Below, one piece after another: positions 4,831 through 37,502 of a stretch of 37,927 nucleotides of DNA (positions within the stretch are counted from its first letter, which is position 1; every line of letters starts with the position of its first letter). Source of the DNA: Vermamoeba vermiformis (taxonomy: Eukaryota). The notes beneath the pieces were generated by a model. The model saw only the letters and a program-made list of their open reading frames with translations, made no database searches and was not told the DNA's origin. Position numbers and translations under genes: made by a program. The stretch lies in assembly GCA_045837725.1 (NCBI GenBank), contig JBEWZL010000172.1:1-37927 (forward strand), in the 5' to 3' direction.

Positions 4831-7369
4831 TTAAGTGGCTTTACACGTCGCAAAGCATTTGTTCTGCATCCAATCAGATCCTAAGGGACATACGAACAGG
4901 TTGTTACTCGCTGAACAAACAGCCAGATTTTCAGGCAAAACAGTGACCTCATCATCCCACTTCCGAAATCGATTGTTTGAAATATCAAGGTAGACCATTT
5001 GGTTGAATGCAACCGGTAAAAGATGGAAATCTCCGTTGAGCTGATTATTGGACAAATCGAGATGAACTAATGAGTCAGATCTGGTCGCGGGAAATGAGTC
5101 GCCTGTCAGCATATTGTTCGCCAAATTGAGGTACTTTAGACCGAATCCAAAGTACGGCAGTGTTCCATTGAAGCGATTCGAACTCAGATCCAGCGTGTCA
5201 ATCATTCGACAGTCGGGAATTGTTCCGTCGATCTGATTGTTTGCCAAGTTCACTTCCGCAATCCATTCGCTACTGAGAAAATCTTCTGGAAGTGTGCCGT
5301 AGAACTGGTTTCTGCTCAGATCGATCACGCGCAGTTCAGGATATTTTACTATATTTGGAAGTGATCCTGTGAGACTGTTATCCGCAAGCTTTAGCTCTGT
5401 CAATCTGTCAAGCTGTCCAAATTCTTCAGGTATGGTGCCAGTCAATGAGTTGTTCCGCAGTACAAGACTACTAAGCCACGTGATTTTGTTCAGTGACGAT
5501 GGCAATGTGCCAGTCAAGTTGTTATTGTCCAGCCAAATGTGAATGTTGGTCCACAACTCGCGTGGCATAGTGCCGTTCGGAAGCTCATCGAAATAATGCC
5601 ACGTGTTCTCGCATTTAACGCCGTACCACTCGCAGATCGATATTCTTTCGTTGAGCCAATTGTCTTTTCTCAGCCACGTGTTACCATTCGTTGCAACATA
5701 AAAATCTTTCATAGCCGTGACGAACTCTGGCGGTATTTTAAAATCGTCTTGCTCGGTGCTGTGGAGCGGAATAACTCCAGCGAATGCCAGTGCCATGAAG
5801 ACGGTGGCTAGAATCGTTACACAGCTGACCGCAAGGAGCACGATCTTTTTCGTTCGTGATCCGCGTTGATAATTATCAGTGGTGCGTGACGGCGTTGAGT
5901 GTTGCTTAGTAGTGTTGTCTTTTTGTAGAAATTGCTCGTACATCTCGTCAATAGTTCGCTGAATTCGTTCTGTCTTTGATCGAAGGTCGTTGATGTCACC
6001 ATAGTTGGCACGAACTGACTCGCTAAGATATGGTATCAGAGACTCATAGTCAACGTGAAGAATACCTAGATGCCGTCTATGTTAGATAGATACTAAAGGG
6101 AATCACAATTGATTTAATAGAACTCACCGTCAATGAGTTGAACAGCTTCAGGAACAACACTCTCCACTTGTTGTGCAATGTAGCCAACAAATCGTCTGTT
6201 CGTGTCTGGATGCACTCCTTGCTTGAACTTGTAGTCAACACCGTCGATTTGAAGTAGAGTATTGCGGCAGTCGTGGTCTGAAGTACCATAAATGACACGT
6301 GTCAGTCCAATGTTACACGCGATCCTACGGGCGCAGAGAAGCTTCCAGAGATAATTATAACTACGTACCTTCAACGAGTAGCCTGATGTCCTCTTTGATA
6401 TTGATGTCTGATGACTTGTAGAAGTTCAATGCTCTGAAGTTACCAACGACTTCTGCATTGCCGTTGTAAAGTACCATGTACTGCTCGCCGTTGTTGTTGC
6501 TCGCTAGATACTGTAGCTCTGTATCGTTGTTGTTGTTCTTGGGCAAATATTGCACCTCGATAGCACTACAGGAGTTAATCGCATAAAAACGGATGTGAAA
6601 ACTTACTTCGGCTGATCGAAGGGATACATCTGATTGGTCTCCGAATAACCTTGCCCCGAGTCTTCGTTAGAACAGCTCGCTTGGTTGTAGTGTTCTTCGT
6701 CAACATAATAAGTCTCGTGCTCGTGCGGTGGACTTTCTTCAACATAAGCCGAAAGATTGGGCGAAACTTGGCTTAGAGGTGATGTCGGAACGAAATCTGG
6801 TACCCAAAACACGGGGATAAAAGCTTAACAATAAACCGGTGAGTAAATCCACGAGAAAATACATGTTTTCGTATTTTTTGGCGTACGCTCGCCGGCAAAA
6901 TTCTTAACTTGATCCAAATGCTTACCCGTCGAGTCGTTGCTCCCTTGGCGATTTTTTGGTAATATTTGGACGATGTTGCTGAATGCTTGTTTGATGATCT
7001 GACCATTTTTGATTTCATTCACTTGAATTCGTATTTCTCGGGCTTTGTATCTTCGAAAATCGAACAATTTGGCTGGAAGCTTAATTCTTACGACAATTCC
7101 TCAATTTCTTGCGTCTCCTCCGAGCGTTGAAATCTTATTGGTTTTCTCTTCGCCCAAACGAAGCAGTTTGGCAATGAAACTTCTTCGTCAGTTTGAGGTT
7201 GTTTATAAACGAGTGTTATATGGTACTGCAGGCTGCTTTCATCATTATTTTTCTCGGCCAAACCAAATCCAAAATTCGTCCCCAATAAAGGAACAGATTC
7301 GAGATTCGCGGGACCACTTAGAGGAATGTACAAATCAAAAATGTTCCGAATGCGAGCGGTGTGTGCCAT
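4831..7369 (-). CDS. MYRF-like protein copy 1: putative DBD - ICA (peptidase S74) - TM - LRR; 1-bp frameshift near 7099
   Basis: Spliced motifs YKSSDINIKEDI, GYIAQQVESVVPEAV, LHVDYESL, coiled coil, TM KKIVLLAVSCVTILATVFMALAFAGVIPL, CEWYGVKC cap, LxxNxLTGTIP repeats. Copy 1 has GAGGA where copy 2 has GAGGGA. Confidence 0.82.
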
Positions 7370-7619
7370 TTGTTGATTACATAGTAAAAAAGTGACGGGT
7401 GCCAGTTGATTCCCACAGGACACTTTCGGGCAAATAGCCAGTCCTATCAGATTTTTCAATCATTTTACTTAAAAAAAGGCGTGGAATTATTTTTAAGTAC
7501 TTTGGCGAACCCGATCATCAATCTATTCAGTTATTTCGTCGGTTAAGTGTCTTGATCTAGCTGAAATTTAAATCAGCAAGCTAAGACCCAGACTAATAGC
7601 TCCACTATTTAATTATGAT

Positions 7620-10036
7620 CTATTTACAAGTAGCACGACAAATATGTTCGATATAAACCGAGCCCAACGGACAAGCAAACTGATTATTACTTGCGTCGCA
7701 TCGGAACCCGTTCTCAGGCACGCGAGGGTACTCGTCTTGCCAAGTACGAAGCATATTATTTGAAATATTAAGGTACCTCATTTTGATGAATTGTTCGGCT
7801 GACATTGTAAAATGACCGCTGAATCTGTTATTCGCCAAGTTGAGATGGATCGCGTTTGCAGTTGACGCTAAGATCTCGCCTTCAATCATGTTGTTGGATA
7901 AATCGAGGTATTCCAATGCAACGCTTAAGAAGGGAAGAGATCCGTTGATGCGGTTTGAACTCAGATCCAGCACTTTTAGTCGGCTATGCCCTGGTATGGG
8001 ACCTTCGATCTGATTGTTTGCTAAGTAAACTTCATTGATGTGATCGTTGTCGAAGAAATCATTCGGGAATGTGCCGTAGAACTGATTTCTGTTCAGATCC
8101 AGCACTATCAACTTGGAAAATTTAGCCATATTAGGCAACGTTCCCGTCAATCTGTTGCTCGACAATCTTAGAACTTCCAAGTTTTCAATCTTCGCGAATT
8201 CTTCAGGGATGGTTCCAGTCAACGAGTTGTTCCGCAGAGCGAGACTTTGAAGCCACGTGATATTGTTCAATGACGAGGGCAATTTGCCAGTCAAGTTGTT
8301 GTTGTCCAATGAGACGTGAATGAAATTATATGTCACCGCAGTTCCGTTCAAGTAACGCTGTTGTTCGATGCACTTAACGCCATACCACTCGCAGATTGAT
8401 ATTTGTTCGTTGAGCCAGTTGTCATTTCTCAGCCACGTGTCACCATTCGTTGAACTATATAAATCTTTCCAAGCGACGCTGAACTCTGGCGGAAAGTTCG
8501 AGTCTGGGCTTGGTGGTGTGTCGTCTTGCGAGCTACCAACGTTTTGGATAGGAATCACGCCAATGAAGGCCAACGTGGCAAGTATCGCCACCAACACTGT
8601 AACAGAAATGACGCTAAGCAGAACAAGTTTTTTCAGTCGTGATGCACGTTGAGGCTTTGATGACGTCGAGGTTTGCTGAAGAGACTCCGTCTTACGGATA
8701 AATTGCTCGTACATCTCGTCAATAGTTCGTTGGATTCGATCTGTCTTTGAGCGAAGATCGTTGATGTCACCATAGTTGGCACGAACTGACTCGCTTAGAT
8801 ATGGTATCAGAGACTCATAGTCGACATGAAGAATACCTACATGGGACCTCAATTAGCTTGATAGTTCTATAGATGTACACAACGCAATAGAACTCACCAT
8901 CAATGAGCTGAACAGCCTCGGGAACAACACTCTCCACTTGTTGTGCAATGTAGCCAACAAATCGTCTGTTTGTGTCTGGATGCACTCCTTGCTTGAATTT
9001 GTAGTTTACTCCGTCAATTTGCAGCAACGTTTCACGGCAATCGTGGTCTGAAGTACCATAAATGACACGTGTCAGTCAAATGTTACACGCACGATTATGC
9101 TGATGGTAGGAAGTGTAAAGTGCTATAGCCAATGCCTCGTACGTACCTTCAACGAGCAGCCTGATGTCCTCTTTGATATTGATGTCTGATGACTTGTAGA
9201 AGTTCAATGCTCTGAAGTTACCAACGACTTCTGCATTGCCGTTGTAAAGTACCATGTATTGCTCGCCGGCATTGTTGTTGTTTGATAGGTACTGTAGCTC
9301 TGCATCGTAATGATAAGGTCTACACATAAATGTTAGGTAAGGAATTCACGGTCAGAAGAAACTTACGTGGGCAGCAGTGGGTCGATGTCTCCCAGGTTCT
9401 CGATCTCGTCCGCCGGACTTTCCGCCACATACGAAGAAAGGTTCAGCGGTGAAACTGGGCTCAATGGAATAACGTCTTGCATCCATAAAACCGGTATAAG
9501 TACTAAGTGAATCGTTAGCGCAGATTTCGCAGACGAGCTAATTAAACGTATCTTTATCTTAAAAAATTCTTAAAAATGGTAAATCGCTTACCCGTAGAGT
9601 CTGTATGAGAAGTTCGACTTTTAGGTAATATTTGGACGATGTTGCTGAATGCTTGTTTGATGATCTGACCATTTTTGATTTCATTCACTTGAATTCGCGT
9701 TTGTTGTGTTCTATGCTTTCTGAAATCGAATACTTTGGGTGGTAATTTAATCTTAACTATTATTCCCTCGACTTCTTGTGTTGCCTCCGAGCGTTGAAAT
9801 CTTATTGCGTTTCTCTTCGCCCACTCAAAGCAGTTGGTCAACGCAACGTCTTCACCCGTTCTCGGATGTTTGAAAGCTAGTTGAATGTGGTATTGAAGGC
9901 AATTTTCATCGTTGTTTTTCAAGCCCAACGCAAATCCAAAATTCGTTCCAAGCAAAGGAACCGCTTCCAGATTAGCAGGACCATTGAGAGGAACTAATAG
10001 ATCGAATAGGTTACGAATACGTGCACTGTGGGCCAT
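7620..10036 (-). CDS. MYRF-like protein copy 2: putative DBD - ICA - TM - LRR
   Basis: Exons in ORFs 9554-10036, 9076-9327, 8815-9027 and 7620-8852 carry the same motifs; no disruption seen. Confidence 0.88.
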
Positions 10037-10223
10037 CTCTACCGAAATTGATTAAATGGAGGTTTTGTGCGCAATTAAGATGTGACGAGACAAATGTGAC
10101 ATCCGGGCGAATAGTTCGGCCAGTTCATTTCAACCGTTTTAAAATTATATATTGTCGTTGAAGGTAACAACAAAGCATTATTCTTTAGAGTATAGTACAA
10201 ATAAATAGTCGGAGACTGTTCCG

Positions 10224-11369
10224 TTACAGGATCTCCAATGCACCGGTCGGATTGCCGTAATAACAATTGACATAATGACCAGAAACTGCTTCGCGCATTT
10301 GAAAGCCTCGATGAAACACTTTCAGCAATTTGAGCTCTTCAGGAGTAAATTTCCAACGTTGCTGATCTTCAGGCTTGTTTTTGTCCTCTTCTCTTTCGCG
10401 CTCTATTCGCTCCAAGTCTTGGTGCGTGCCAAATGTTAATACTCCATGGTTTTTCGACTTGAGACGTGGCTTTGGATCGCCTTTGGTGATGATACACGAT
10501 TCAATATATTCGCCTAAAGAGAATAATGAGAAATAATGCTAAAATTAGAACATTAAATATATCACTTACCAAGAATACCCTGGAAACAAGTCGAAAGCGA
10601 CAAGCTGAGGACTTGATCCAAAAAATCTTTGACGAACTTGTGACAGTTCCACTCTGTCTGCGAGTATTTGATCGTAGAGTTCCATTTTTGTACAAATTCC
10701 ACAGCCTAAAAGCTACTGTCAATCTTTGTAATCACTTTTAGCGGATTTGGCTGACCTTTTGTTCCAGTTCAGGAGTGTAAACGACTTGGACTGAATCGTG
10801 AACATCAAATAATATTGTAGCTGTCTTAGACTTTAACTCTCCAATATGTACAAGGCTGCTTTCGTTCCAATCAATGACCTTAAAATCAGAAAGTGATCAG
10901 ATCGAGCAAAAGAATTAAATTTTAACTTACAACGGAACCAAATTGCAATCCTACGTGCGATGCTCCAAATATTAGTGACCCTTTCTTGAAGAAATTGAGG
11001 ACTTTAGCCATATTTACAAGAGACGGAGTAATTGAAGAGATGAAGAGCTTGACAGGCAGTCTGATCGTCTATATAATACAAGGATTAACTTTAAAAATAG
11101 CCAAAAAATATGCAGTATTATCTTAATAATTTTAGAATTAATCTACTTACGCCGCTAGCATTTTTCGGGAACGGAAACATTTTATTGGCCAAGATCTCTG
11201 GTGAATAATAGTCGTCGGCGCTAATACTCGCCCAGTCATCTCCGAGGCCTTTAATCTTTTTATGGACGCTCGCTGCTCCATCACTCGTTGCCGAGGGATG
11301 ACTTGAGGTGGATTTGCGATTTTGAGAAGGGCCTTCAGACGGAGAGATGGCTCGAGATATATTGCCCAT
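10224..11369 (-). CDS. Permuted papain-fold peptidase (PPPDE/DeSI-like), catalytic His and Cys intact
   Basis: Spliced product has FGASHVGLQFGSVVIDW and QKWNSTIKYSQTEWNCHKFVKDFL (Cys codon 10643-10645); His-before-Cys order as in PPPDE. Starts MGN (possible myristoylation). Confidence 0.72.
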
Positions 11370-11529
11370 TAATGACCGGTTGGGTTGTTGCGTTCAAAGA
11401 ATTCAAATTTAAGTTTATAGGCAATCTTCGTCGACTTTTCGTGACTGCTAAATGTCAAGATCTTGACAGGTTCAAAGAATTAACTCGTAAATGTCCCTCT
11501 GACGACAGGAAATTTTTAAATAACAAACA

Positions 11530-14500
11530 CTACTGTTTCATGGGTTTGCCACTGTCGTTCAAGATCTCCAAACCATTGGTGGGAAGACCATAACAGCAGC
11601 TACTCACGTCTTTGCCATTCGCTGCTTCTTGCAATTGAAAACCACGATGGAAGATCTTCAACAGTTTGTTCTCATCGTCACTCAGTTTGTTTCGAAGGGC
11701 ACGATCTGCTTCTTCGAGCTCTTCATGTGTCTTGAACACCATCACTCCGTTCTTGGGTGAAAACAGTCGTGGAGTCGCGTCACCTGTTCTCATCACGTAG
11801 TCCATGTAAGAGCCTAGAGAATTATATTAGCACATGGCCAGTCATTCTACATAAGCTTTAAACGTACCCAATGGTCCTTTAAAACGGTCAAGAAGTGACA
11901 CATTCATTGTGTATTGCAAGAAGTCTCGCACAAAGCGATGAGAGTTGAACTCGTCAGATGAATAGCGGTACTCTACGTTCCATTTTTGAATGAAGTTGAT
12001 CATCTAAAAGAACGCAAGTAGTGTTAGCAATGGGTGGATAATGACTTAAAATGAAAGGGCGACTTACTTTTTGTGCCGTCTCTTCAGAGAAGTCAAACTT
12101 GACCGAGTCTTGAATGTCGAACAAAACAGCCACTGCGTTGCCGTGCTTGAGCTCGCCAATGTGCACGATACCACTTTGATTCCATTCGATGATCTAAACA
12201 AATGGTTGATTAACAAGACTGACTAGACCTGAACGTTGACAGTTGTGTACGTACTGTGTTGGCGATCTGAAGACCAGAGTGCACACCATCAACAATTGAT
12301 TTGCCTCTGAAAGGACGCATCAGCTTGGCGACGTTCGTTGCCAATCCTGCTGATGTTGATGCGATGAACACACGAACTGCGATTTTGGCATTCTGAATCG
12401 ATGGTTAAACTGAGGAGAATAACGAATAGCTGTCATTACTTACCTTGTCAGTCTTGAAGTTGAACAATTGTTGACGCAGTTGATCGCTGTTGTAGCACTC
12501 TTCGAGCGTCTTATTCCACTTATTATCAAAATTCTTCAGTTCGGCGCTTTTCTCTTCCAATACTTTTCGTTTGTTTGCCGGCAATTTATCTAAAGTCGGC
12601 GGACATTCTATTGGCAGATCATCGATGATCATTGGCTCAACCTCCTCTGGCGGCGCTAACGTTTTAGCAGCTGCCACTGCAACGTGCGAACTTGACCTGG
12701 TTATCAACGGCAAGTTTGGTAGAGTTACCAGTCTAAATCTTTGGCAAAACGTTAGTTACTTTTCTTTAAAAACTCAGTCGTACATACTTGTTAGGCGTAG
12801 GTTGTTCAGCAATGTCATCGCAAATCATTTGTTCTTTCAAGTGCTCCAACTCTTCAGTGAACTGCTCGTTTCCAGCTCGTTTCATTGAAGTTTCAACATC
12901 GCTAATGAAGCACTCGTAGATCTCGGTCAATCCGTCTTCTTTCAGGGTTTGAAGGATGTCCTTTTTGCGTTGAAGAACGTACCAAAGAACGTACGCTGGG
13001 CATCGGATGTAGACGAGCACACTGCCGTTGACTACTGACGCATCTTCCAAGTCATATTCTATACCAAGTGCAGCTAAGGAAGTTGCAGCATACTCCGTCC
13101 TGGGTTTGATACCTTTAGGCTCGAACTTGAAACAAAGAAAAATGTTCTGAACAACGCGCTTGGCGACACGTGCCAGCGTCCACTGCAAGAAGAAATTCTT
13201 GAATGGATCAGCTAGCTGAGCGGCACCAAGACCTTTTCTCCAAGAAGCACCACCAACGACAACTTCGCGAAGTTGCTCAATTGATACTACTAGCTTCACT
13301 GACTGCGCTAGCGTTGAGTAGTTGAGCTCTACGGGTCTAAAATCAGCTCCTTTAACAGCGAACTCCCATGACTCGGTGCCAATGTTAGCAATGCGAGAAA
13401 TGGCCATGAGAGGGTCTTCTTGCTTGTCTTGATTTTCGAGTAGCAAGATGACTTCGCTTGTTGCAGGCAAGTAATCATCCAAGACGTACAATCTCTCAGC
13501 CTTTTCATAGGGAAAGAGCAGTACGTGTCGTATGGTGTTGTTCGTCTTTTTAAGACTATACAGGCGCTGGTGCGTTGTCGAGCTGACCTCTTCAGCGAAT
13601 CCACAATTAATGAGCGTTGAATACGCCATTTGGATGCACTCGTCGTTGTCCGGGACCAGCAGAAGGAAGTTAACAATGAGCGCTTCAGTTGAAGCAACTT
13701 GCATGCCGTTTGGAAGAACTTGTGGCGGTGTCTGGACTTGAAACGGGCTTTGTACTTGTGACGGGGTTTGGGGCGCTTGGCCTTGTGGTGAGGTTTGCAC
13801 TTGCGGCGTACCAACTTCGTATAGAAAGTCCATCACCTCCCCGCTACTCGAAGGGCTGATGCTACTATTGGGCGAGATGAGGTTGCTTCCAAACTGGTTT
13901 ATCAAGTCATTATATTCAGCGCTGAACGGCGTTGGTTGTGCACTGTAGTTAGTCGCTGTTTGAGACTCATCGTCGAGCTGCATGTCGTTGTTGTTTGTTG
14001 GAGAGAGTTTGGCTCGTTTGTTTCTATTTGGCTGAGTCGACAAGCAATAGATAGTGTCCTCTGTCTCGTCAGGAAACCTAAAGCGAAGAGTTCCTCGCTT
14101 ATTTTTGTGAAAGTCAACTTGGTTCAAGTAGTAAGTCACGCCATTTGAAGCGGCGAAAGTACGGCTCTCCTTCCAAATAAACAAGTTTGTGTCTTCGATT
14201 ATCAGCATCACTGGTTCAGTAGTAACGAACCAATAAATTGCTCGTGCAGTAAGAGCATTGCCCGGAGGTAGTTTCGATATTTCAACGGCCCTTTGGAGTT
14301 TTAGATCTGGTGAAAGTCGAGTTCCAACATCTTTGACTCGCGTACAATATATCCGATTCCTTAAAATTACGTTATAATTGTGACGCTTTCTGCCAACACT
14401 TACGTTTGGACGGATGGGACCCGAATCCGCTGTTCTTCGACTGAATCCTCCCGAGGACGCTTCGCCCTAATTTTGTTGTCAATATTTTATTAATGAAAAA

Positions 14501-14565
14501 TGGAATTCTACTCACGCGTAATTGCGCTGGGGTAAATCTGCCGGGTAAGTATTTCGATCTGACAT
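11530..14565 (-). CDS. Multidomain protein: unknown domain X - NLS/QP-rich linker - unknown domain M - PPPDE-like pseudo-peptidase (Cys>Ser)
   Basis: Exons join in frame from ATG 14565 through ORFs 12766-14211, 12405-12713, GVHSGLQIANT, YSSDEFNSHRFVRDFL, to stop 11530. Further 5' exons possible. Confidence 0.75.
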
Positions 14566-14981
14566 TTCTCCTGAACCTGAAGCAATAATTAGCTATTATG
14601 GAGCTAAAATTAAATGAATTATAATTTAAATTAGTTTAATTTAATTAAATTTAAATGTCAATCTGCGGATTCATGATTTTTTACCGTAAAATCCAATTGG
14701 CTGTTGTATACTTTCTTGGCTTGGTGTTTCAAAGCCTCTTTTATGTTTTAGACCAAAAGAATTGAATGCGCATTACCCAAAATCAATTCTTTCCAAGCAC
14801 GTGCCTCGCTCGCATTGAAATGTTAGGCCAGAAATTTAAATCTTTTGTCGACGAGAATCGATCTATCAATACCAAAAGATGCAATATATCCACCAAATAT
14901 AGAAAGGCGAGAGTGTGGGCGAAGCGGCAGATCCGATCAGAAGATCCACAAGTAAAATAAGTGCTTTGGGTTTAATGTATT

Positions 14982-17731
14982 TCATTGGTTCAAGATCTCC
15001 AAACCATTCGTGGGAAGTCCATAACAGCAGCTACTCACATCTTTGCCATTCGCTGCTTCTTGCAACTGAAAACCACGATGGAAGATCTTCAACAGTTTGT
15101 TCTCGTCATCACTCAGTTGGTTTCGATCTACTTTTTCGAGCTCTTCATGTGTCTTGAACACCATCACTCCATTCTTGGGTGAAATCAGTAGTGGAGTCGC
15201 GTCACCTGTTCTCATCACGTAGTCCATGTAAGAGCCTAGAGAAGCGTATTAGCTCATGTAGTCATCACATACAGACGTACCCAATGGTCCTTTGAAGCAA
15301 TCGAGAAGTGACACATCCATCGTGTATTGCAAGAAGTCTCGCACAAAGCGATGAGAGTTGAACTCTTCAGATGAATAGCGGTACTTGATGTTCCATAGTT
15401 GAATGAAGTTGATCATCTGACGAAGTAGTAGATGTAGTTAGCAAACTATCATAACCTTAGCTAGCTAGTGTACTGTTTACTTACCTTCTGGGCAATCTGT
15501 TCCGTAAAGTCAAACTTGACTGAGCCTTGAACATCGAACAAAACAGCCGTGGCACTCGTGGGTTTTAGCTCACCAATGTGCACGATACCACTTTGATTCC
15601 ATTCGACGATCTAGCGTACAAATGAGTACTAATGAAGAAATGTCGGTTATTCACTTACTGTATTGGCGATCTGAAGGCCAGAGTGCACACCATCGACAAT
15701 TGATTTGCCTCTGAAAGGACGCATCAACTTGGCGACGTTTGTTGCCAATCCTGCTGATGCTGATGCGATGAACACACGAACTGCGATTTTGGCGTTCTGA
15801 ATCGATGGTTAAAATGAGGATAATAACGGATAGCTGTCATTACTTACCTTGTCAGTCTTGAAGTTGAACAATTGTTGACGCAGTTGATCGCTGTTGTAGC
15901 ACTCTTCGAGTGTCTTATTCCACTTATTATCGAAGACTTTCATAGCGTTATATTTTGCCTCAAGCGATTGTTGCCGCTCCTTTGAAAGTTTGTCGACGGT
16001 GGGAGGCATGGTTGGTAGATGTACAACCTTGAATCTGCGTACATAACGAGTTAAAACATTAAATAGCTTGTAGAATCGCCTTACCTTGTCGCTGTTGGCT
16101 GTTCTAGCACATCATCTTCAAGCATGAGCTCCTTCAAAAATCTCAACTCCTCGACGAACTTTTCATTGCTGGGTCGCTTCATTGACGCTTCAATATCGCT
16201 GATGAAGCACTCGTAGATCTCTGTCAGTTTGTAGTCGCTGAGAGTATCGAAAACGTCTTGTTTGCGCTGAAGAATGTACCATGGAAGATACGACGGGCAA
16301 CGGATATACACGAGGACACTGCCATGGACCACAACGGGCGTATATTCATATTCGATGTCGAGCGCAGCAAGTATGATGGCAGCGTACTCGGATAACGCTT
16401 GAACAACGTCTGGTTCGAACTTGAAGCAGAGATAAATCGCTTCTGGGGTATGTCTGACAACCCGTTCGGAGTTCAAAGTCCATTCAATGAGGAACCTGTT
16501 GAACGGCCCTTGAAGCTCTTGGATTGTGGCGTTCTGACAGCTCGCACCACCGAGAATGCCACGCAGCTTTGAGATCGAAAAGAGTGTTTTGACAGACGGT
16601 TCCAGCGGCTCGTAGTTCAACACTAACTGACCAAAGTTGGCTGTCTTGGTCACGAACTCCCACGTGTTGTTGACCAAGATATTGTTGACAATAGTGGCGA
16701 CGTTATTCACTTGTTTTATGGCCATCAACTCGTTCGGTTGCTGCTCTCCTTTGTTGTCAATCAGCAACAGGACTTCACTGGCTTGCGGCAGGTAATCGTC
16801 GATTCGGAGATATCTATTCTCGGTGCCAAAAGGAATCAAGAGCACGTGTCGCTTGGTGTTGACCAAGTCTGTGTGGCTGTAGATGTACTGACGATTGTGC
16901 GAGCTAACTTCTTTCTTGAAGCCAACGGTCGTCAGTGCCGTGTCAGCCATTTGAATGAAGTCAGGTTCGTCAGGAACTAACAGCAGTGTGTTGATGACAA
17001 CTATGGTCTTAGGAGGTAGCTTGCTGAGGAGATCTTTCAGATCGAATGGCTCCTGACAAGGAAACGTTAGTTCGTTAAAAGTTTCAACGCAAGATCCAAT
17101 TTACCTCGGGTGATTTTGCAACTCCAATATTCTCTAATAAGAGATCAAGTGGTGGCAAGCATTCTACTCGCACTATAGTACCGTCTGTAAATTCAAAACC
17201 AATTGCTCCACGCTCCTTGGCTTTAAAATCGACTCGGTAGAGGTAGTGCACGATGCCACTGGAATCTTCAACTTCAGTTTGCGACTTCCAAGCGAATAAT
17301 TTGTCGTTGTATTGAATATCTTCCAACACTTCTGTTGTTACGAACCAATAGCATGCAAGCGACGGCAATTGTTTGTCCTGGGGAACGGGTTGAGCGAATT
17401 GAAGGATCCGTCTGTTCCGCTCCTCTTTATTTCCAGGACTTTGCACTTTCTCGACCCTAACATAGCGCAATGACCTAGTTCAATAATTAATAACGAAATT
17501 GCAAGGCGAATACAGAAGATTTTGCACATCTGGCAATTAAAACCAGATTTTTTGTTAGAACCAAATTTCTGTATAATTATTACTCGATAATTTGACGCTA
17601 ATACTTAAATTGTAGCTGATTCAAAATTGATAATTAATTTTAATGCATCTGGTTAATTTTCCGCTTTGAAAACGAACTTACTTAGACTCCATGCTGCCTT
17701 ATTTGCATTAGTGTTGTTGGCGACCAACGCT
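14982..17731 (-). CDS. Paralog: domain X - domain M - PPPDE-like pseudo-peptidase (Cys>Ser); 5' end uncertain
   Basis: ORFs 17084-17470, 16081-16950, 15809-16009 and 14982-15227 splice in frame; YSSEEFNSHRFVRDFL; small upstream exons at about 17682-17731 and 17514-17529. Confidence 0.72.
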
Positions 17732-17955
17732 CTACAGAGAAGAAATGTCGATTTTCGAAGCTAAAATGAATTGCCTCCCTGTCATTTCCGAGGAGCCAAT
17801 TCATCAGGGTTCGACCAACAGATCTAAGTACGCAGTAACCTCCATACAGCGCTGTATAGCGAATAACTTCCAATTACTCCAAACAAGGTTTAATTCAGTT
17901 CTGATCCAACCCAAGGCCTAATCATACAATTTTATACACGCTATTTTACACTCTT

Positions 17956-20608
17956 CTACTTACAATTGGCATTACAGCTAGAAATAGCCCAATTTGGCAA
18001 AGGACATTTCAAAGGCACGTGCGACATGTCACAAGACTTGAAAGACGGTCTGCCAGGTACAAATTGGGTCTGTTCAATGCTGCTGATCGACGTGTGGGCC
18101 ATACGGAGCACTTTAATCGTGCGCAGCTGTGTTTCGCTGAAGCTTAATGTGCCAGTCAAGTTGTTCGAGCCCATGAGCAGCGAAACAATGCCAGTCAAGT
18201 TGCTCAGGTTCGCGACATCACCCACAAGCTTATTGTTCTCAATGTTGAGGTTAGTCGTTACGGCACTAAACTCAGGCAACGGGCCCTCGAGGAGGTTATT
18301 GCTAACGTCGAGATGCGTGACGTTCACGAAGGGAATAGTGCCTGTAAGTGTATTGTTTGCGAGCTTAACTTCGTGCAACTGTGGTGCGCTGACAATGCTC
18401 GCAGGAATGGTGCCGCTGAATCTATTGTTGTCCAGTCGGAGGGTACTAAGTGAAGCCATGTGCGCGAGTTCTTCAGGAATCGTGCCAGTCAAGTCATTTT
18501 GTTGAAGTTGAAGCACTTGCAATTGTGTCAATGCAGTAATGTCCGATGATAAAGTTCCGCTGATATGATTGCCAGATAAATCCACTTCAATTAACGTCGT
18601 TAAGTCGAACAAGCTCGAAGAAATTGTGCCGCTGAGACCATTTTCTTGCAATGCTAGCTTCGTAACAGATTTGCCTGTGCAGCTCACGCCGTACCACGTG
18701 CAAATAGGTATAGATTTGTTGAGCCAGCCAATACTATGTCTCCAATTCAGGCCATTTGTCGAGAGATACAGGTCTTTGAAGACGCGCTCGATCAGCGGAT
18801 CTTGAGGTTCAGCAGGACCCGAGTGGGCAGGCGTCAATGGGTCCGCAGGAACATGAGTAATATGTCCAGGAATGATCATGACTGCAATCATCGCACCAAC
18901 ACCTACTATGGCGAGACCGGCTATCAAGATGATAACTTTCCAGATCGTGCTGAATCCTGGACCGGATTCGCCAGATTCGTTCTCTTCTGTCTTCACAGGC
19001 TCCTTCTTTGCTTTCTTCGTCTTTTCTTTTTGAATAAATTCTTCGTATATTGAATCAAAAGTTTGATGGAACTTCGTTTTGTCTGTCTTAATGTTTTGAA
19101 TGTCGTTGTAATTGGCACGAACCGATTCACTCAGATATGGTAGTAACGCTTCATAATCGACATGAAGCACACCTAGAAGATACCACCATCAGTTTAATAT
19201 ACTAATTGACCGCAGTAGGCTCGATGGAACTCACCATCAATGAGCTGAACAGCTTCAGGAACAACACTCTCCACTTGTTGTGCAATGTAGCCAACAAATC
19301 GTCTGTTCGTGTCTGGATGCACTCCTTGCTTGAACTTGTAATCAACACCATCGATCTTTAGCAACGTGTCACGGCAGTCGTGATCTGAAGTCAAGAAATG
19401 ACACGTGTCAGTCATGAATTACGCGCACGATTATGCTGATGGTAGGCATTGTAAAGTGTTATAGCCAGCACCTCGTACGTACCTTCAACTAGTAGCCTGA
19501 TATCCTCTTTGATATTGATGTCTGATGACTTGTAGAAGTTCAATGCTCTGAAGTTTCCAACGACTTCTGCATTGCCGTTGTAAAGTATCATATAATTCTC
19601 GTTCTGCATCTGTTGCGGTATATCTTCGTAAGGAGAATAATGCTGTTGTTGTAAGGTTGGTAGATTTGGGTTCGGAAACATGAGCAATTCGTAGTCGGAA
19701 CTGGATGCGCGGGTTAGCAAACCTTAAATTGAAGCGTTTTTACTAGTATTAACTTACTAATGCCCCGATAATAGGCCCTGTTGAGGGCTATTCGACATTG
19801 CTACATTTGTATTGGAACCAGGCCTATGTAAGTTATTAATAACGCCTAATATTTTGGTACAGAGCGAAATTATTGATGCTTACGCTATATAACTCGTAGA
19901 GCTTGCGTATGATTCTATCGAAGGGCTCGTGTAATAATCGTGCGATGTGTTTGCAATATTCGCTGTTGTATCCATTCGTGCCTCGCTTTGATCGGGCTTA
20001 GGTTCGTTGGTAAGTGGATCCCAGTCGATTGATAGCCTAACTATAATAACGTGCAATTAATTTTGAGCCTTACAACGAAGTTTGAAACTAAAATGGGAAT
20101 TGGGTCCCATCGAGATGGCGGCTAAAACAAAAAAATAATTACCTTCATCGCCATCGATATCTAAATCATTTCCATGTCTTCGCTTTGGCAATACTTTGAA
20201 TAGCGCAGATACTCCTTGGTTCTTGTACGCTCCATCCACGAAGTAAAGCGCTGATATTCTTACAAGCTGCTCTTTCATTTTTCTAAAATCAAATACTCCA
20301 TGGCTGACTTTAATTCTAATTATTACGCCTTCAATTTCCTCGGTTTGAGGGTTCTTTTGGAAGCTGAGCGGATGCCTTTTTCCCCACGTTGCCCAATCCT
20401 CATAAGTGCGTTCGGCATATTCTCTGTCGGCTAAACAATATAATTGCAGTTGATATAAATGCACTTGGCCTGTTGCTGTGTCTTTGAGTGAAAAACCGAA
20501 ACGATTATTGCCCGGATTTGTTGGTGTTAGTCGGTCCACTTGATGGCCAACAGGGCAAACTAAGGGTACGTACACCCTAAATAAATTTCTTACGTGTACT
20601 TTCTGCAT
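17956..20608 (-). CDS. MYRF-like protein copy 3: putative DBD - ICA - TM - LRR
   Basis: HVRNLFRVYV...SALFKVLPKRR; SSDINIK; GYIAQQV; TM WKVIILIAGLAIVGVGAMIAVMII; CTWYGVSC cap and LRRs. Confidence 0.87.
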
Positions 20609-20747
20609 GGAGGAAGACAATGATTCTGTTTTCGTGTCTCGCTAGACGTCAATGGGTGTCACCCGCGGGTTGTATTTTCTGCGTGCACATTTTAAAGGGG
20701 CGTGTATTGAACATTATTATTTACAGCATAAAAACTATTAACATAAA

Positions 20748-23371
20748 TTAGCTACAGGTGGCTTTACATTTCGCTGCCCAACTCGGCAGCGGGCAAATGA
20801 ACGGGGTATCGCTCGCGTCACATCTGTTGAAGTTTGGACTCGGACTAGACTCTTGCTCCACCAAGTGCTTGATCTTCGTGTGAGATACATCAAACACTGT
20901 TAGTGTTCTTAACTGGTCGGAACTGAGCTCCAGCGTGTCGTTGAAGTTATTGTACGACAGATCTAGCACTACCAAACTCGACATTTCCGTAATGGTATGG
21001 AGGTTGCCATAGAAGCTATTATTAGACAAATTCAAGTGCGTTGTTGACCATGAAAGAGATATGGTGCCTTCGAGGCGGTTGTGGCTCAGATCTAACCTCG
21101 AGATGACAAACTGCGGGATCACGCCTGTAAATTTGTTTCTTGATAGGTTCAGCTCGACCATCGCCAATTGTATGCCCATCATATCCGGAATAGTACCCGA
21201 GAGCTCGTTGTTGCTGAGATCCATAACTATGAGGCTAGTTTGAATAAATTCTTTCGGGATCGTGCCGCTGAACTTATTTCCGCTAAGAATCAATGTTCGA
21301 AGCTCTTTGTTCTCCAATACGACCGCGGGAAGGGATCCTTCTAGTAAGTTGTTCGTCAAATTGAGCAGCGTTAAATTTCCTAATTCGGAAAAAGTTTCTG
21401 GGATGGTTCCCACCAAGTTGTTGGAGGGTAAATTGAGCTCCACAACGGCAGAATTCTTGCACTTGACGCCAAACCATTTGCAGACAGTAACACTCGTATT
21501 CAGCCAGTTATCTCGTATCTTCCAGTTCGGTCCATTCGTTGCTTCGTAAAACTCTTTCAGTGCGATGAACGTAGCAGACTTTTCTTCACCAACGGGTTCG
21601 AGGGGTATTTCGGGCACGCTCGGCGGGGTGTTAGGCACCGGATCGTGAAGTTGTGACGTCACAACTAAGTAGGTAACGAGGCCTATTGTTGCACACGTCG
21701 CTACTATACTGATAATGATTATAGTCTTCCACAACGTGCTCAGACCTTTCTTGCTCGGGGCTGGTCTCTTGGTCTCTCGTCTGCTGCTCTCAGTGACAGC
21801 AACTGGTGTTTTGAGGTCTTCTTTCTTCACAAACTGCTCGTACATACTGTCAATAGCTTGCTGTATCCGATCTGCCTTCGCGTTAACATCCTTTATATCA
21901 TTGAAGTTCTGCTTGATAGACTCGCTTAGATATGGTATCAGAGACTCATAGTCAACGTGCAGCACACCTGTATGAAGTTAATTAGTTTAACAGGGCATAC
22001 TGGCTCGGTGGAACTCACCATCAATGAGTTGAACAGCTTCAGGAACAACACTCTCCACTTGTTGTGCAATGTAGCCAACAAATCGTCTGTTCGTGTCTGG
22101 ATGCACTCCTTGCTTGAACTTGTAGTTTACTCCGTCGATTTGAAGTAGTGTATTGCGACAGTCGTGATCTGAAGTACATAAATGACACGTGTCAGTCATG
22201 TATTACACGCACGATTATGCTGAAGGTAGGAAGCGTAAAGTGCTCTATCCAACGCCCCGTACGTACCTTCAACGAGCAGCCTGATGTCCTCTTTGATATT
22301 GATGTCTGATGACTTGTAGAAGTTCAATGCTCTGAAGTTACCAACGACTTCTGCATTGCCGTTGTAAAGTACCATGTAATTCTCGTTTTGCGGTGAAATG
22401 TACTGCAACTCTGCTCGCTGTTGCATGGCGTAATCAATGTTAGTGTTATTAAAGCCTTGCATTTGCTCGTAATCATCCGGTGACGAAGAGCTAAAAAAAG
22501 GTTTAGTCGGACGAAACTGGCATAATTGATTATCGAACTTACTAGAACTTGTTTACATCCTCGGGCACGGGACTCGCTGAATTTGAAGAAGTTTCGGCGA
22601 CCACTGAAGACGTCTTTCTAATCCAACGGTTATACATAATCTTTTGTATATAGAAGGTTAGGCAAGCTTACAATTGGTCATCAGGGCTATCATAGCTTGA
22701 ATATGAACCAGAAACATCGAATGGATTGTAATTGTCGGAATTGAGGCCTTGGCTGCTAGCCGACACAGATGACGGATCGTTAATGCCACTTCCAGTGTTT
22801 GGTTCCCAATTAATGGGAATACATACTATAAAATATAATGTAAATAATCACGATTATGCTAATATTATCCGTAATGATTTCGCCGTGGAAAGTCCAGATT
22901 AAGAATTTTAGGACGCTAGTTAAGCTTACCTTCATCTTCATCTGCAGCTGTTCGTCTTTTAGGCAATATTTTAATAATTGGAGAGGCTGCACGTTGTTGT
23001 AGAATTCCATCCACGGAATAGTTCAATGCTATCCGCGCCAGTTGCTCATTTAATTTTCTAAAATCAAATACTCCATGATTTACTTTAATTCTAATTAATA
23101 CTCCTTCAATTTGATCATTCTCCGTCGTTTGAAAGCAGATCGGGCTTCGCTTTGCCCAAGTAGCCCAGTTTTCGTAGGATCTTGAGGGCTTTTCGTCATC
23201 AGCAATGCAGAATAATTCTAAGTGATAATTGTGCGTCCGATTTGTTGCCTTGTCTTTAAGAACAAAGCCGAATGGATTATCCGGCGGCGTTAACATCTGA
23301 AGTTGATACCCCGGAGGGCACGCTAAAGGCACGTATAGCCTGAAGAAGTGCCGAATATGCACCTTCTGCAT
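20748..23371 (-). CDS. MYRF-like protein copy 4: putative DBD - ICA - TM - LRR
   Basis: HIRHFFRLYV...SPIIKILPKRR; SSDINIK; GYIAQQV; TM WKTIIIISIVATCATIGLVTYLVV; CKWFGVKC cap and LRRs. Confidence 0.87.
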
Positions 23372-23844
23372 TCTTTAATTACGTGTCGTTGCAAAAATGA
23401 ACTCCAACAACCGATTGACAGGTGGTATAAACCGGATGGGACAAGGACGAGACAATTCCTTTTGTCGTCCAATTTTTCTATTTTGCGCAAAATACGAGCG
23501 ATTCGTAACTCATATTGATAATTATATTTCGTCTTTGCTCTTTATTGAACCTTTGCGATTGCGGAAAACTGGAATCCATTGTTTGATTGATTTCATTTGA
23601 GTTGATTTAAGCAACAAAACAGCAACAATGCTTGAAAACCTATTAGTAGATTAATTAAATTGATATTGGCCACATGAATCATTCTGCGACAGAAAAGTAG
23701 GTGCAGAGCAATGAACTTAGATTATTAAATATTTATTTAATTAAAAAGCCTTTACAATAATAAAATATAATTAATTCGTGTTAATTTTTGCTCAATTTTT
23801 ACCCATTTAGGGCAGCCACCTCGCTAGATGCTAGAAATCCGCTG

Positions 23845-25559: not shown

Positions 25560-26380
25560 TCTGTTGAATTGGCTCCTCGGAAACGACAGGGAGGCAATTC
25601 ATTTTTACTTCGAACACCGACATTTGACATTTCTTCTCTGTAAAGGGCCACAATACTAATCCAAATAAAGCACCATGGAGCCTAAGTAAGTTAGTTTTTA
25701 AAGCGCAAAATTAACCAAAGCCAAATAATCAATTTTGAATCAGTTTCAATTACAACTTATTTCATAAAACCTGCCTCGTAAAATATTTTGTAAAATATTT
25801 AGATAAGTTGCAAATTAGTTAATATATTCCCCATAGATCAGGCCATTCGGCTACGGCATAATTTACGCCAAAATATTTTACGAGGCAGGGTTTATGAAAT
25901 CAGTTATAAAATATTTGCGCCAAAATATCGAGTAATAATTCAACAATAATTTGGTTCTACTAACAAAATTAATTCTGGTTAAAATTGACAGATGTGCAAA
26001 ATCTTCTGTATTCGCCTTGCAATTTCGTTATTAATTATTGAACTAGGTCATTGCGCTATGTTAGGGTCGAGAAAGTGAAAAGTCCAGGAAATAAACAAGA
26101 GCGGAACAAAAGGATCCTTCAATTCGCTCAACCCATTCCCCAGGACAAACAATTGCCGTCGCTCGCATGCTATTGGTTCGTAACAACAGAAGTGTTGGAA
26201 GATATTCGATACAACGGCAAATTATTTGCTTGGAAGTCGCAAACTGAAGTGGAAGATTCGAATGGCATCGGGCACTCCCTCTATAAAGTCGATTTTAAAG
26301 CCAAAGAGCGCGGAGCAATTGGTTTTGAATTTAAAGACGGTACTATAGTGCAAGTAGAATGCTTTCCACCACTTGACCTA
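25560..26380. repeat. Inverted duplicate of about 17140-17810
   Basis: Reverse-complement similarity covers exons, introns and upstream sequence, e.g. GAATTGGCTCCTCGGAAA.GACAGGGAGGCAATTCATTTT. Confidence 0.85.
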
Positions 26381-28627
26381 ATATTCGAGCTGCCTTTGGG
26401 TAAAATCACGAATCTCGATTGACATTTAAATCTAATGAAATTAAACAATTGTAATTTACTAATTATAATTCACTGAATTTTAGCCCCACAATAGCTAATT
26501 ATTTCTTTCCGGAGATAGCATATCAAAATATTTACTCGGCAGGTTTACCCCAGCGCGATTACGTGTGAGTTAGTTCCATTTTTCTTTAATAAAATATTGA
26601 CAAAAAACTAGGGCCCAGCAGGATTCAGTCGAAGAAAAGCAGATTCGCCTCCCATCCGTCCAAACGTAAGCGTTGAACGAAGCAATCACATGTATAACGT
26701 AATTTTAAGGTATCGGATATATTGTACACGAGTCCAGGACGTTGGAACTCGACTGGCTGAAGATCTGAGACTCCAAAGAGTCGTTGAAATATCGCAACTA
26801 CCTCCAGGCAATGCTCTTACTGCACGAGCAATTTATTGGTTTGTTACTACTGAACCAGTGGGGATGATAATCGAAGACAAAAACTTGTTTATTTGGAAGG
26901 AGTGTCATACTTTTACCGCTTCCGATGGCGTAACTTACTACTTGAACCAAGTGGACTTTCACAAAAATAAGCGAGGAACTATTCGCTTTAGGTTTCCTGA
27001 CGAGACCGTAGACACTATCTACTGCTTGCCGACTCAGCCAAACAGAAACAAACGAGCCAAACTCTCTCCGACAAATAACAGTGCACAGAATTTCTTCGAA
27101 TTAGAACCTCAATTCAATTTTGAAGCCGTGCTCGATGAGTCTCAAACCGCGACAAACTACAGTGCACAGCCCGGAGGCGGCATGAGCCCGTTCATTAGTG
27201 AATTCACGCGCAGTGCTCAGCAGAACAATAGCCCCCTATTCACCAAGCAGCAGATGTACACGATATCCCACAACGACACGTGCAGTCACAGCGAGGAAGC
27301 CAGCGAGGAGTTGACGCAAGCCGATCAGAATTTCTTCGAATTAGAACCTCAATTCAATTTTGAAGCCGTGCTCGATGAGTCTCAAACCGCGACAAACTAC
27401 AGTGCACAGCCAACGCCGTTCAACGCTGATTATTATGACCTGATAAACCAGTTTGGAAGCAATATTATCTCGCCCAATAGTAGCATCAGCCCTTCGAGTA
27501 GCGGGGAGGTGATGGACGTATTTTATGAAGTTGGTGTGCCGCAAGTACAAACCTCGCTACAGGACCAAGCTTCACCCCAAACCCCATCACAAGTCCAGCC
27601 CCCGCCACAAGTTGTTCCAAATGCTGTGATGGACTACATATTCGCAGTTACGCCACAAACAACTCTTCAAATACCATTCAAGCAGTTAGATATTGGTCGT
27701 CAGATCGGTGAAGGAACGTACGGAGTTATTAGCGAGGCTACATGGAACGGCCAAATGTATGCAGTCAAACGCTTCAAGTTCACGAGCAAGAAAGAGGATA
27801 TAATCAAAGAAACCGAAGTGTTGCAGTACGTGCATAACATTAATAGCGCCCTATTCCAATGATTAACATTAATTTCAGACGATTGCAACACGAGTGCATT
27901 GTGTCTTTGAAAGGCGTCACAACGGATCCAAGCACCAATGAAACAAGGTTAGTTTTGGAGTACATGGCAGATGGATCATTAGACGACCTACTGTCACGTG
28001 ATGGTGCTCACTTGTCGCGAGTGGATGTGATTCAGATCGCGTTGGATGTCGCACAAGGACTTCACTACCTTCATTCACAAAAAATAATTCATCGAGATCT
28101 CAAGAGTGCAAATGTCTTGGTAAGCTATTGCCATGCTTTTTTTGACCACCAATCTCACATACAGCTATTCTAATTAATTCACTGTCAATTATACTAACGC
28201 TTGCTTACAAGCTTTATAATAACAAGAAGCGAGCCAAGATATCGGACTTTGGCACCGTTAGAATATTTTTTAACAGCACCAATACAACTGCAATGGTTGG
28301 TACTTTAGGATTTATGGCCCCTGAAGTTCTTCATGGAGATCCTTACGACAAAAAGGCCGACGTCTATTCGTAAGTTTTACGTGCAAAATGCCGCGCTTTA
28401 TAAACTCATTAGTATTCAGGTTCGGCGCCCTTCTCTACAACATGTTAACGAGAAAAAATTTTCCGATGTTGTTTAAAGACGCCGCTGCTGCAAACGTCAA
28501 GATTCGATCTGATGTTAGCGACTTCGACTTTCAAGAGCTAATTCTCATGTGCTGCAAACTAGAGCAGAACGAACGACCAACGATTGAAGCGTGCATAGAG
28601 ATCTTGAACAGGTTGAAGGAAAATTAA
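25646..28627 (+). CDS. Domain X (probably tandem X-X) - QP-rich linker - TKL-type kinase; 5' end uncertain
   Basis: ORF 26690-27862 (X plus IGEGTYG, AVKR), then HRDLKSANVL, ISDFG, GTLGFMAPE, ERPT. ORF 26051 can splice in frame via intron 26400-26518 and two short exons. Confidence 0.7.
25753..25906. mobile_element. MITE of about 154 bp, probable TA target-site duplication, intronic
   Basis: 32-bp inverted repeat with 1 mismatch (25759-25790 and 25869-25900), extendable outward to flanking TA dinucleotides; absent from the paralogous site near 17605-17615. Confidence 0.8.
26400..27600. repeat. Inverted duplicate of about 13770-14690
   Basis: High nucleotide similarity over introns, domain X and linker; ends where the kinase replaces domain M. 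Confidence 0.85.
27086..27411 (+). repeat. Exact 86-bp direct repeat inside coding sequence (27086-27171 and 27326-27411)
   Basis: QNFFELEPQFNFEAVLDESQTATNYSAQP encoded twice, period 240 bp, in frame. Confidence 0.93.
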
Positions 28628-35219: not shown

Positions 35220-37502
35220 ATCAGAACAACAACATCGACCAAGCAACGCTGCAACAGGCGAAGCCTATAACGTACGGAGATATTATTTTCTTAAATTTTA
35301 TATTAACATACAACAGGGACATTCGCGTCGTTATTTCAAATACTTGGCCAACGTGGTGGAGCAGTATTGCTCAGTTCAATGCTGACGCCGCAATGATACT
35401 TCAGTGCGCAAGGCCACTACCAGAAGAACGTGAGCTTGCGCGTGAGGATGGAACACTGTGGTTCATTAGCCAAGTTGAACTGCAGTTGCGCGGTGGTGGT
35501 GATGAACTACAGGTGTCGCATTTCATTTATGAGCAGTATCACTTGTACTGCACTCGCATCGAATCAGATCTCCTCATCGAGTTCTGCAACAACGGGCACT
35601 TGGTTGATCATTTAATTTACAAGAGGTACGTGGCAGACCTTTGCCAAAGAGTACTGTTACATGTGATCTTAATGCAACATTTCTAGGTCTCGCTTGCGCT
35701 ACACGCGAGCGAAAGATGTTGGCACTCGAATTACATCAGTTGAGCAACGCAATGCAAGAATTATCGAGATTGCTAAGCCTCTTCCAAAAAGCAACACGCT
35801 CACTGCACGAGCGATATATTGGTTTGTCACAACTGAACAAGTAGAAGTAGTCTTTGACGACACCCAATTATTTGAATGGTCAGAGACGGTCCCACTTTGT
35901 GACAGCAACGGTGCAACATCTTATTATCTGAATCGAGTAAACTTTCGACGAAACAAGCAAGGAACATTTTGGCTTCGATTTGTTAATAATGGCGAAGTGA
36001 TGAGTGTTATTTGCTCCAAAACTGTGAACAAACAACCAAAGCCAAACAAACGTATCAAATTGTCACAAGCTAGCGATGAGTCCAGCAAGCAGTCTGATCA
36101 AGAGACAGATTATGTTGTTCAATCTCCTGCAAACAATACCAACATGCCACAGTATTCAGAATCAATCCCTCAGCATCTTAAAAATCATGTGCAAACTCCA
36201 GTCCAAGAGCCTCTTATCATTAACATACTACTCTTGGTACCTCATGAATCAAATATTGTTAATCGGGTTCAGAAAGTGCTCCTCAAGCTCAAATATGACA
36301 AAGCAGCCAGCTCTGATAATCTTCATCTCTACAACCAAAAACAATTTGACCAGATACGGCACATATTGATATTTCTTTACAAAGAGGTTGATGCTACAGC
36401 ACTACAACATATGTTACCAACTGCTAATGATGTCATAGCGCTGCTTGAGAGAGATAAAAAAGAACAACCAGGCTACATAATGGAAGTTGAAAAAGTCAAC
36501 ATTTGTGCCCAAGGGGTCAACACAACATGGAAGTTAAACATCAAGACTTTTTTTGAGAAGGCAACAATTGATTACTTGCAGCTTGACCCTGCATTTCAAA
36601 CACTGTTTCATATTGACAAACTTGAAGCTCTTCTAAGTGGTGTTAGTTGTCAGAAAGATCTATCTTTGGAAGAGTTTGAAAAGAAACTTAGCACATTTAT
36701 CATTCACTGGAGCCTCAAGCCTCCTGCTGTGAAGGAACTGCGACAAAAGATCTACTTGTGCTTCAAATATGAGCATGATTCAGTCAGATCATTCACTGAC
36801 TATGCTCAAACTACTCTTGAGGCTCTTGGACTTGCTAGAAGAGCATTTGGCACTGAGCCTGTTACGGTCAATGGCTGTGTGCAAGTCTACATTCGATGCC
36901 CATCATACACACTGTGGTATATAATGCTAAACAAAAAAGAGATCTTCAGTATGCTGGCAGAAGAAGGACTTCAAGAGATCTATGAATGTTTCATTAGTGA
37001 TGTTGAAGCATCAATGAAACACCCTAAAAATGAAAAGTTTATGAATGAATTGACACACTTACAAGAACAGATGATAAGCGACAAGATCGCAGAGCAGCCT
37101 ACAACAAATAATAGATTTAGAGTTGTAGCAGAGACATTGCATACTGTTTCTACAATTGCTGATTCAAATGCAGCTATGACTACACCAGCTGTCACCAATG
37201 AGGGCTACACAGGGCCAGACAGAAAAAAGAATTGTGCCACATTGTTACGTTGCCTTGTCACACCTTTACAGTTTTTCTACAGCACTCTGCAATATTTAGC
37301 AGCTAGTATAGCACCAGCTATCATTGCAGTACCTAAATCAGCATTTGTAGTGCAGCTCAAACGAATTATCTATGTATTATTTGCCTGGAGCATATGTGTT
37401 AATTTGGCTGGTGGGAATGCTTTTCGCCTGGCAGTAAGCAAAACAGATTTAAAATTCTATTCTAATATCTCTTTAGGTTTTTGTCTTCATTTTACTATTT
37501 AA
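35220..37502 (+). CDS. Tandem domain X-X - linker - domain M - hydrophobic (TM-like) C-terminus; both ends uncertain
   Basis: ORF 35393 (ILQCARPLP..LWFISQVE) splices in frame via intron 35626-35686 to ORF 35694 (ARAIYWFVTTE, LLLVP, CFKYE, YIRCP, EIYECFISDVE). The hydrophobic tail probably continues in further exons after 37433. Confidence 0.72.

Follow-up and report, generated by a model that had tools for sequence, protein, structure and literature searches.

Why would an amoeba keep, next to a gene for a cysteine peptidase, two copies of the same domain with a serine in place of the nucleophile, both integrated into large proteins? The question is raised by positions 10,224 to 17,731 of a Vermamoeba vermiformis contig (JBEWZL010000172.1, assembly GCA_045837725.1), analyzed over 37,927 nucleotides, hereafter the window. 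Three genes lie there on the minus strand. Gene A (11369-10224; spliced model and RNA joints) encodes a stand-alone Cys enzyme of 301 amino acids (aa) with a Met-Gly start. Gene B (14565-11530; spliced model, eight exons) encodes an 887-aa protein with the order X - M1 - M2 - linker - Ser pseudo-peptidase, and gene C (17692-14982; spliced model, eight exons) a 729-aa protein of the same layout with a short linker. The Ser domain is a dead copy that originated from the A lineage, lost its nucleophile, is transcribed and is maintained by selection. It may plausibly act as a decoy or trap.

The first-pass annotation had placed the nucleophile codons at a TGT in A (10643-10645, in N-C-H-K-F) and at a TCT in B and C (11941-11943 and 15354-15356, in N-S-H-R-F), with introns at matching positions. 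Both points were confirmed: the motifs read W-N-C-H-K-F and F-N-S-H-R-F, the peptidase part is interrupted by four introns, of phases 0, 0, 0 and 1, at matching places in the three genes, and all spliced models, with GT-AG introns, are open to the stop. The exons of gene A are 11369-11151, 11068-10931, 10878-10756, 10705-10570 and 10513-10224, with the catalytic His codon at 10957-10955 and the Cys codon at 10645-10643. Its start is corrected to 11369; an alternative start at 11011 loses the first exon. This exon, a homolog of the linker in B and C, is also found in the 301-aa relative P0001, and the intron behind it is backed by RNA joints 11060/11065-11151. A further joint, 10872-10929, backs intron 2; it comes, like 11060-11151, from a diverged strain, the source of RNA runs X14 and X16, most reads of which are less than 95% alike and carry no strand or level information. 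Only 160 bases separate the stop of gene B from the ATG of gene A. The Ser pseudo-peptidase domain of B spans 11530..12392 (His codon 12281-12279, Ser codon 11943-11941), and three introns of this gene are backed by contigs of runs X8 and X13, which represent one sample (joints 14465/14515, 14358/14403 and 12738/12788). Gene C comprises X (17464-17138), M1 (17004-16456), M2 (16449-16111), an intron at 16084-16035 that corresponds to the exchange point described below, and the Ser codon (15356-15354); its ATG is now modelled at 17692, and its 5' half is thinly covered by RNA. Among named relatives, the closest are V. vermiformis proteins in EukProt. P0156, one of these, represents a complete transcript frame of 881 aa that contains X, M and the Ser domain; hence, transcripts keep the Ser domain joined to X-M, in line with the coupling proposed earlier.

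The fold also agrees with expectation. A permuted papain fold is predicted for P0001, with DeSI/PPPDE as the best structural match. Gene A carries the His and the Cys of an N-C-x-x-F motif, as do 124 of 146 aligned rows (14 of the 146 are fragments or misaligned at the His or Cys site), and B and C lack the catalytic Cys, Ser (TCT) being found in 7/7 X-M-fused copies. Among 113 rows, the His is conserved in 113, a Tyr in 110, the Cys in 107 and a third residue in 110 (Asp, Glu or His at His+11, a position derived from the alignment and the order of strands rather than from coordinates). This is a Cys-His-polar triad plus Tyr, as in LRAT/YiiX-type permuted NlpC/P60 proteins, although sequence matches to that group (YiiX, BcPPNE, LRAT/PLAAT, CLN5, TseH) stay at noise level (E 0.2-1).

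The proposed identity of gene A as a DeSI-type deSUMOylase or deubiquitinase, on the contrary, was not borne out. With the PPPDE/DeSI peptidases (MEROPS C97, PF05903), it shares the circularly permuted papain fold, the His and the Cys. It differs in a third triad residue, which PPPDE1 lacks (PMC3142127), in an extra C-terminal subdomain of ~90 aa and in the frequent Met-Gly start (34 of 91 full-length family matches). Moreover, PF05903 has no match in P0001 or P0156, and its four matches in the genome all lie at other loci, where true members exist separately. On single exons, Pfam gave only a weak match to DUF4796_C (E 0.0013). Gene A belongs to a large and unnamed protist peptidase family with 142 representatives. 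Its Met-Gly start fits a membrane or lipid enzyme equally well, and enzyme A probably acts as a thiol hydrolase or acyltransferase that is myristoylated and bound to membranes.

The nucleophile exon has 14 matches in the genome, all inspected. Seven encode Cys: four near-identical copies of A, a gene A2, a stand-alone gene on C126 and a kinase fusion on C30. The other seven encode Ser: three copies of B, three of C, plus a gene D. All seven Ser copies lie behind X-M and, as every match was inspected (14/14), this association is not due to chance. The link between fusion and Ser suggested by the first-pass annotation thus holds in one direction only, because the C30 copy (L045 4877-6670), fused to a protein kinase, retains the Cys. 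Two other sequences, C133 and C87, are ~93.5% identical to the window across 9.5-10 kb and are probably other haplotypes. Gene D (C87, L011 5520-7865, minus strand) is a third Ser fusion, in which M2 is cut short by its latter half; no intron of ordinary length brings the frame back in register into the linker, and its Ser domain is nonetheless constrained.

The ratio of nonsynonymous to synonymous substitution rates (dN/dS) in the Ser domain is 0.22 for B-C and 0.15 for B-D and C-D, similar to the Cys pair A-A2 (0.17), and the corresponding ratio between haplotypes (pN/pS) is 0.06 and 0.10. Between B and C, dS is 0.26 in the Ser domain vs. ~2.5 in M, and the intron at the border of the Ser domain is 94% identical; the module was therefore recently copied or converted between the two genes. 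In quick trees, for which support is limited to the approximate likelihood ratio test SH-aLRT, B, C, D, P0156 and P0007 group together (99), and their sister clade contains A, A2 and P0001 (96). Four further Ser forms and an Ala form each branch elsewhere. The large tree had 69 rows (all non-Cys rows of alignment A1, the first 55 Cys rows and the gene models of this analysis) and the smaller one 16. The arrangement also recurs at a distant metagenome locus, L113, in which an X-M-Ser gene lies directly upstream of a Met-Gly Cys gene, in the same order as in the window. The Ser domain at this locus shares 58% identity with B and carries an Arg in place of the catalytic His; the Cys gene beside it is intact and 75% identical to A. 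For DeSI1, the equivalent Cys>Ser form (C108S) is described as inactive (PMC13596326). Given selection, retention at L113 and the inactivity of this mutant, the Ser domain is a retained pseudoenzyme, as had been suspected: it is selected, derived from the neighboring Cys lineage and adjacent to a Cys gene even at L113.

The scaffold that carries it consists of three parts. In B, X is modelled as a beta-rich domain of ~110 aa (14029..14358, minus strand), followed by a basic motif resembling a nuclear localization signal, present in 18 of 25 rows. X had no match in PDB sequences or in the ESM Atlas, and fold searches barely covered it. For M1 (13162..13683), the fold search of the model points to a shortened nucleoside phosphorylase (PNP/MTAN) fold with catalytic residues not recognizably retained; a Roc-like GTPase ranked lower and was rejected. 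PF01048 matches none of 30 M1 rows, and none of its five genome matches lies at an M locus. In addition, hhalign of M1 against one PNP protein of the same genome gave a probability of 0.05 and, by alignment only, a single acidic column reaches 85% conservation, with none in the last strand. M2 (12814..13155), a single copy between the constant and the variable part, resembles a TRADD-N alpha+beta domain with a GS turn, plus two helices, by topology and motif. Its model reads strand-helix-(unassigned)-strand-kinked helix-strand, the rows of the fold search being taken by M1. The G of the turn is invariant, and the S is present in 12 of 13 rows, with Cys in the remaining one. TRADD-N domains are described as RRM-like, with four antiparallel strands and two kinked helices, and with a uS motif (usually GS) at the turn between strands 2 and 3, the Ser being sometimes a Cys (PMC8195603). 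No match for M was obtained in the ESM Atlas. Beyond amoeba-like sequences, searches for X-M in viral contigs, in plasmids and, with P0156, in metagenomes were empty or at chance level, and those in prokaryote genomes gave one 19-residue match and, separately, matches in 3 of 401 genomes (E 0.001-0.005), two with an internal stop.

Behind M2 of gene B, a phase-2 intron (12739..12787, minus strand; model and RNA joint) marks a family-wide exchange point between this constant scaffold and a variable C-terminal part. Of the 12 loci examined, 11 place the phase-2 GT donor at an identical codon. In nine of the 12, an intron of 41-64 bases follows and the exon behind it is open; C181 and C213 could not be resolved, and one window gene reads through. 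The variable part is the Ser pseudo-peptidase in B, C and L113, tetratricopeptide repeats (TPR) followed by a kinase on C101, a kinase on C235, a 26-aa tail on C87, and a segment followed by RhoGAP and kinase on C232; a coiled coil and a kinase lie downstream of C181. On C237 (L103 3495-7076, minus strand), X-M1-M2 is joined to a caspase (PF00656) with visible His and Cys motifs; on C56 (L105 1222-9397), it continues across the exchange intron into an RNF213-like AAA+ region of very large size (E 1e-40 against solved RNF213). Exons beyond the first downstream one are assigned by position, not by transcripts. X-M is, thus, a family with exchanged C-terminal domains on a constant scaffold, and it looks like a modular sensing or defense family.

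The origin of the Ser fusions is well supported. A tandem copy of an A-type Cys gene became, via the shared phase-2 intron, the C-terminal part of an upstream X-M gene, and a single TGT>TCT change removed the nucleophile; selection has maintained the dead domain, which has also passed between B and C. As to function, the preferred reading, given a probability of about 0.5, is that the dead domain binds the substrate of A or a foreign protein that targets A, and that the TRADD-N-like bridge signals this to X-M1. The Ser domain would be a non-catalytic bait for whatever enzyme A binds or whatever attacks it: a substrate or else an inhibitor that comes from a prey bacterium, an endosymbiont or a giant virus. 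The layout would be that of bacterial and animal TRADD-N conflict proteins (constant X and PNP fold, bridge, variable domain), and ligand binding would reset the bridge and free the constant part. As M1 looks catalytically eroded, ATP cleavage would be a less likely output than the recruitment of proteins or an action of X in the nucleus.

Several observations weigh against this bait function. No diversifying selection was seen in any domain between haplotypes (pN/pS 0.05-0.26), and no STAND/NLR domain was found: P0156 contains no Pfam family, and no STAND fold appears among the fold matches of X-M. Both count against defense. The second strand of M2 is unassigned, with a low-confidence stretch at residues 433-444, and M2 has no match to PF20694 or to the solved TRADD-N profile, although PF20694 also matched none of 401 bacterial genomes and no control, so that a positive control was lacking. 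L113 and L114 are identical over 5236 bases; the conserved gene order therefore represents one independent locus. Adjacency is not fixed, either: ~5.7 kb of inserted DNA part B from A on C133, and gene D has no A-type neighbor within the 10 kb examined. Ligand, partner and infection phenotype are all predicted and, if X-M is nuclear and A sits on membranes, the two may never meet a shared ligand.

In the alternative that survives best, unlikely as it is, the Ser domain would be an output under regulation: it would form a heterodimer with enzyme A and inhibit or position it in a dominant-negative-like manner. The sister position of the two clades and the retained adjacency agree with it. The caspase and kinase in the variable slot of other members suggest that this slot may be an output slot, and DeSI1 is described as inactive as a homodimer, its C108S form still dimerizing (PMC13596326). 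However, the Ser domain is only ~45% identical to A, adjacency is broken on C133, and retention of the DeSI1 dimer surface is hypothetical. A role of A as deSUMOylase or deubiquitinase, with the Ser domains as ubiquitin or SUMO readers or traps, appears rather improbable. It draws on DeSI as the best fold match, on weak PF05903 matches in 23 of 113 family members (E up to 0.01; best E 2.1e-6), on the RNF213-like member and on a UCH-family gene in the window; as the DeSI-type identity is not supported, the reader role proposed in the first-pass annotation has no positive evidence. More doubtful still, X-M proteins may be ordinary signaling or transcription scaffolds with no defense role, M1 being an eroded small-GTPase-like or metabolite-binding domain and M2 of the SEA/ACT type, possibly self-cleaving at GS. 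There is little chance that the Ser form works as a Ser-His-Glu enzyme of novel chemistry, be it an ester hydrolase or an acyltransferase: B, C, D, P0156 and P0007 do retain the His, Glu, Tyr and Asn, and four further Ser forms arose separately, but the His is Arg in L113, and Cys>Ser kills DeSI1 (PMC13596326). Finally, a neutral by-product of tandem duplication and read-through is very improbable, even in a locus rich in tandem copies and transposases with a damaged-looking gene D, as it is contradicted by dN/dS as well as by transcripts and by retention down to 58% identity.

Further members and neighbors surround these genes. On the plus strand, the window contains an X-only open frame similar to X of gene C (26042..26419), an X fused to a protein kinase without M and 85% identical to X of B (26612..27859), and a further X-M1-M2 member (35673..37499) in which the exchange intron is absent and the frame continues for another 140 aa. 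The latter is adjoined by open-frame pieces of a UCH/USP-family deubiquitinase gene (33652-34565, minus strand). On C132 (L109 2919-4457, minus strand), X stands behind a kinase end and precedes a Gln/Pro-rich tract and DUF4476, an arrangement compatible with that of a transcription factor. Interleaved with the X-M genes are expanded tandem genes on the minus strand (4831-7459, 7620-10051, 17956-19723 and 20057-23374, with further copies on C87, C133 and C289), which encode an N-terminal domain without assignment, a chaperone domain of the Peptidase_S74 type (E 7e-10), a transmembrane segment and extracellular leucine-rich repeats (LRRs). They look like membrane-bound self-cleaving transcription factors of the MYRF/MrfA kind fused to an LRR receptor part. 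Two families of DDE transposase genes are present (3075-3961, plus; 31699-32910, minus), and a kinase frame at 1387-1887 runs into short degenerate repeats of ~10-14 codons. The C133 insert (~17500-23800, L008/L009) holds an opposite-strand multi-exon gene with GTPase-like motifs, an Asn/Asp-rich tract and an LRR fragment; this GTPase-like gene, presumably dynamin-like, had no match in Pfam.

Giant viruses and intracellular bacteria live in free-living amoebae, the defenses of which are poorly mapped. It is conceivable, at odds well short of even, that Vermamoeba-like amoebae possess undescribed cell-autonomous immune receptors (X, eroded PNP and TRADD-N, with no NLR core) that gain their sensors and effectors (caspase, RNF213-like ATPase, kinases and RhoGAP) by one-intron exon exchange and include a true integrated decoy. 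If so, TRADD-N systems would be extended to unicellular eukaryotes and integrated decoys to protists. With a defined expanded family, a single exchange point and an enzyme/pseudoenzyme pair at hand, the locus makes the substrate of the peptidase family and the role of the scaffold directly testable.

Each part resembles known things; for the combination in an amoeba, the literature searched, mostly outside subscription journals, gave no example, nor any published description of an X-M/pseudo-peptidase family in amoebae. The supplements of PMC8195603 and of the bioRxiv paper cited below may list amoebozoan members. Integrated decoys of plant NLRs and pseudokinase baits are obvious systems for comparison. 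As in these, a dead copy of a host enzyme, host-derived according to the sister position of the Ser and A clades, is fused into a larger signaling protein and kept near its relative; unlike them, there is no NB-ARC/NACHT core, no paired head-to-head helper gene and no known effector. The immune PNP ATP nucleosidases, as described for Cap17, DtcC and fungal and coral NLR-PNP (bioRxiv 10.1101/2023.01.24.525353), share a PNP fold in multi-domain proteins with immune-like partners, whereas M1, of ~175 aa, has no PF01048 match, no conserved acidic residue in its last strand and no NLR core beside it. From the TRADD-N conflict proteins, the family differs by its lack of a PF20694 match, eroded-looking PNP fold, extra N-terminal X, intron exchange, pseudo-peptidase and RNF213-like partners, and by its host, a unicellular amoeba, a type not reported in the passages of PMC8195603 consulted. 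In common with them, it has a PNP fold ahead of an alpha+beta domain with a GS turn, situated where the constant part gives way to the variable one, as well as caspase, kinase and TPR partners and a lineage-specific expansion (PMC8195603), and the C237 protein has the very order of the bacterial PNPase-TRADD-N-caspase protein, of which Gemmata provides an example.
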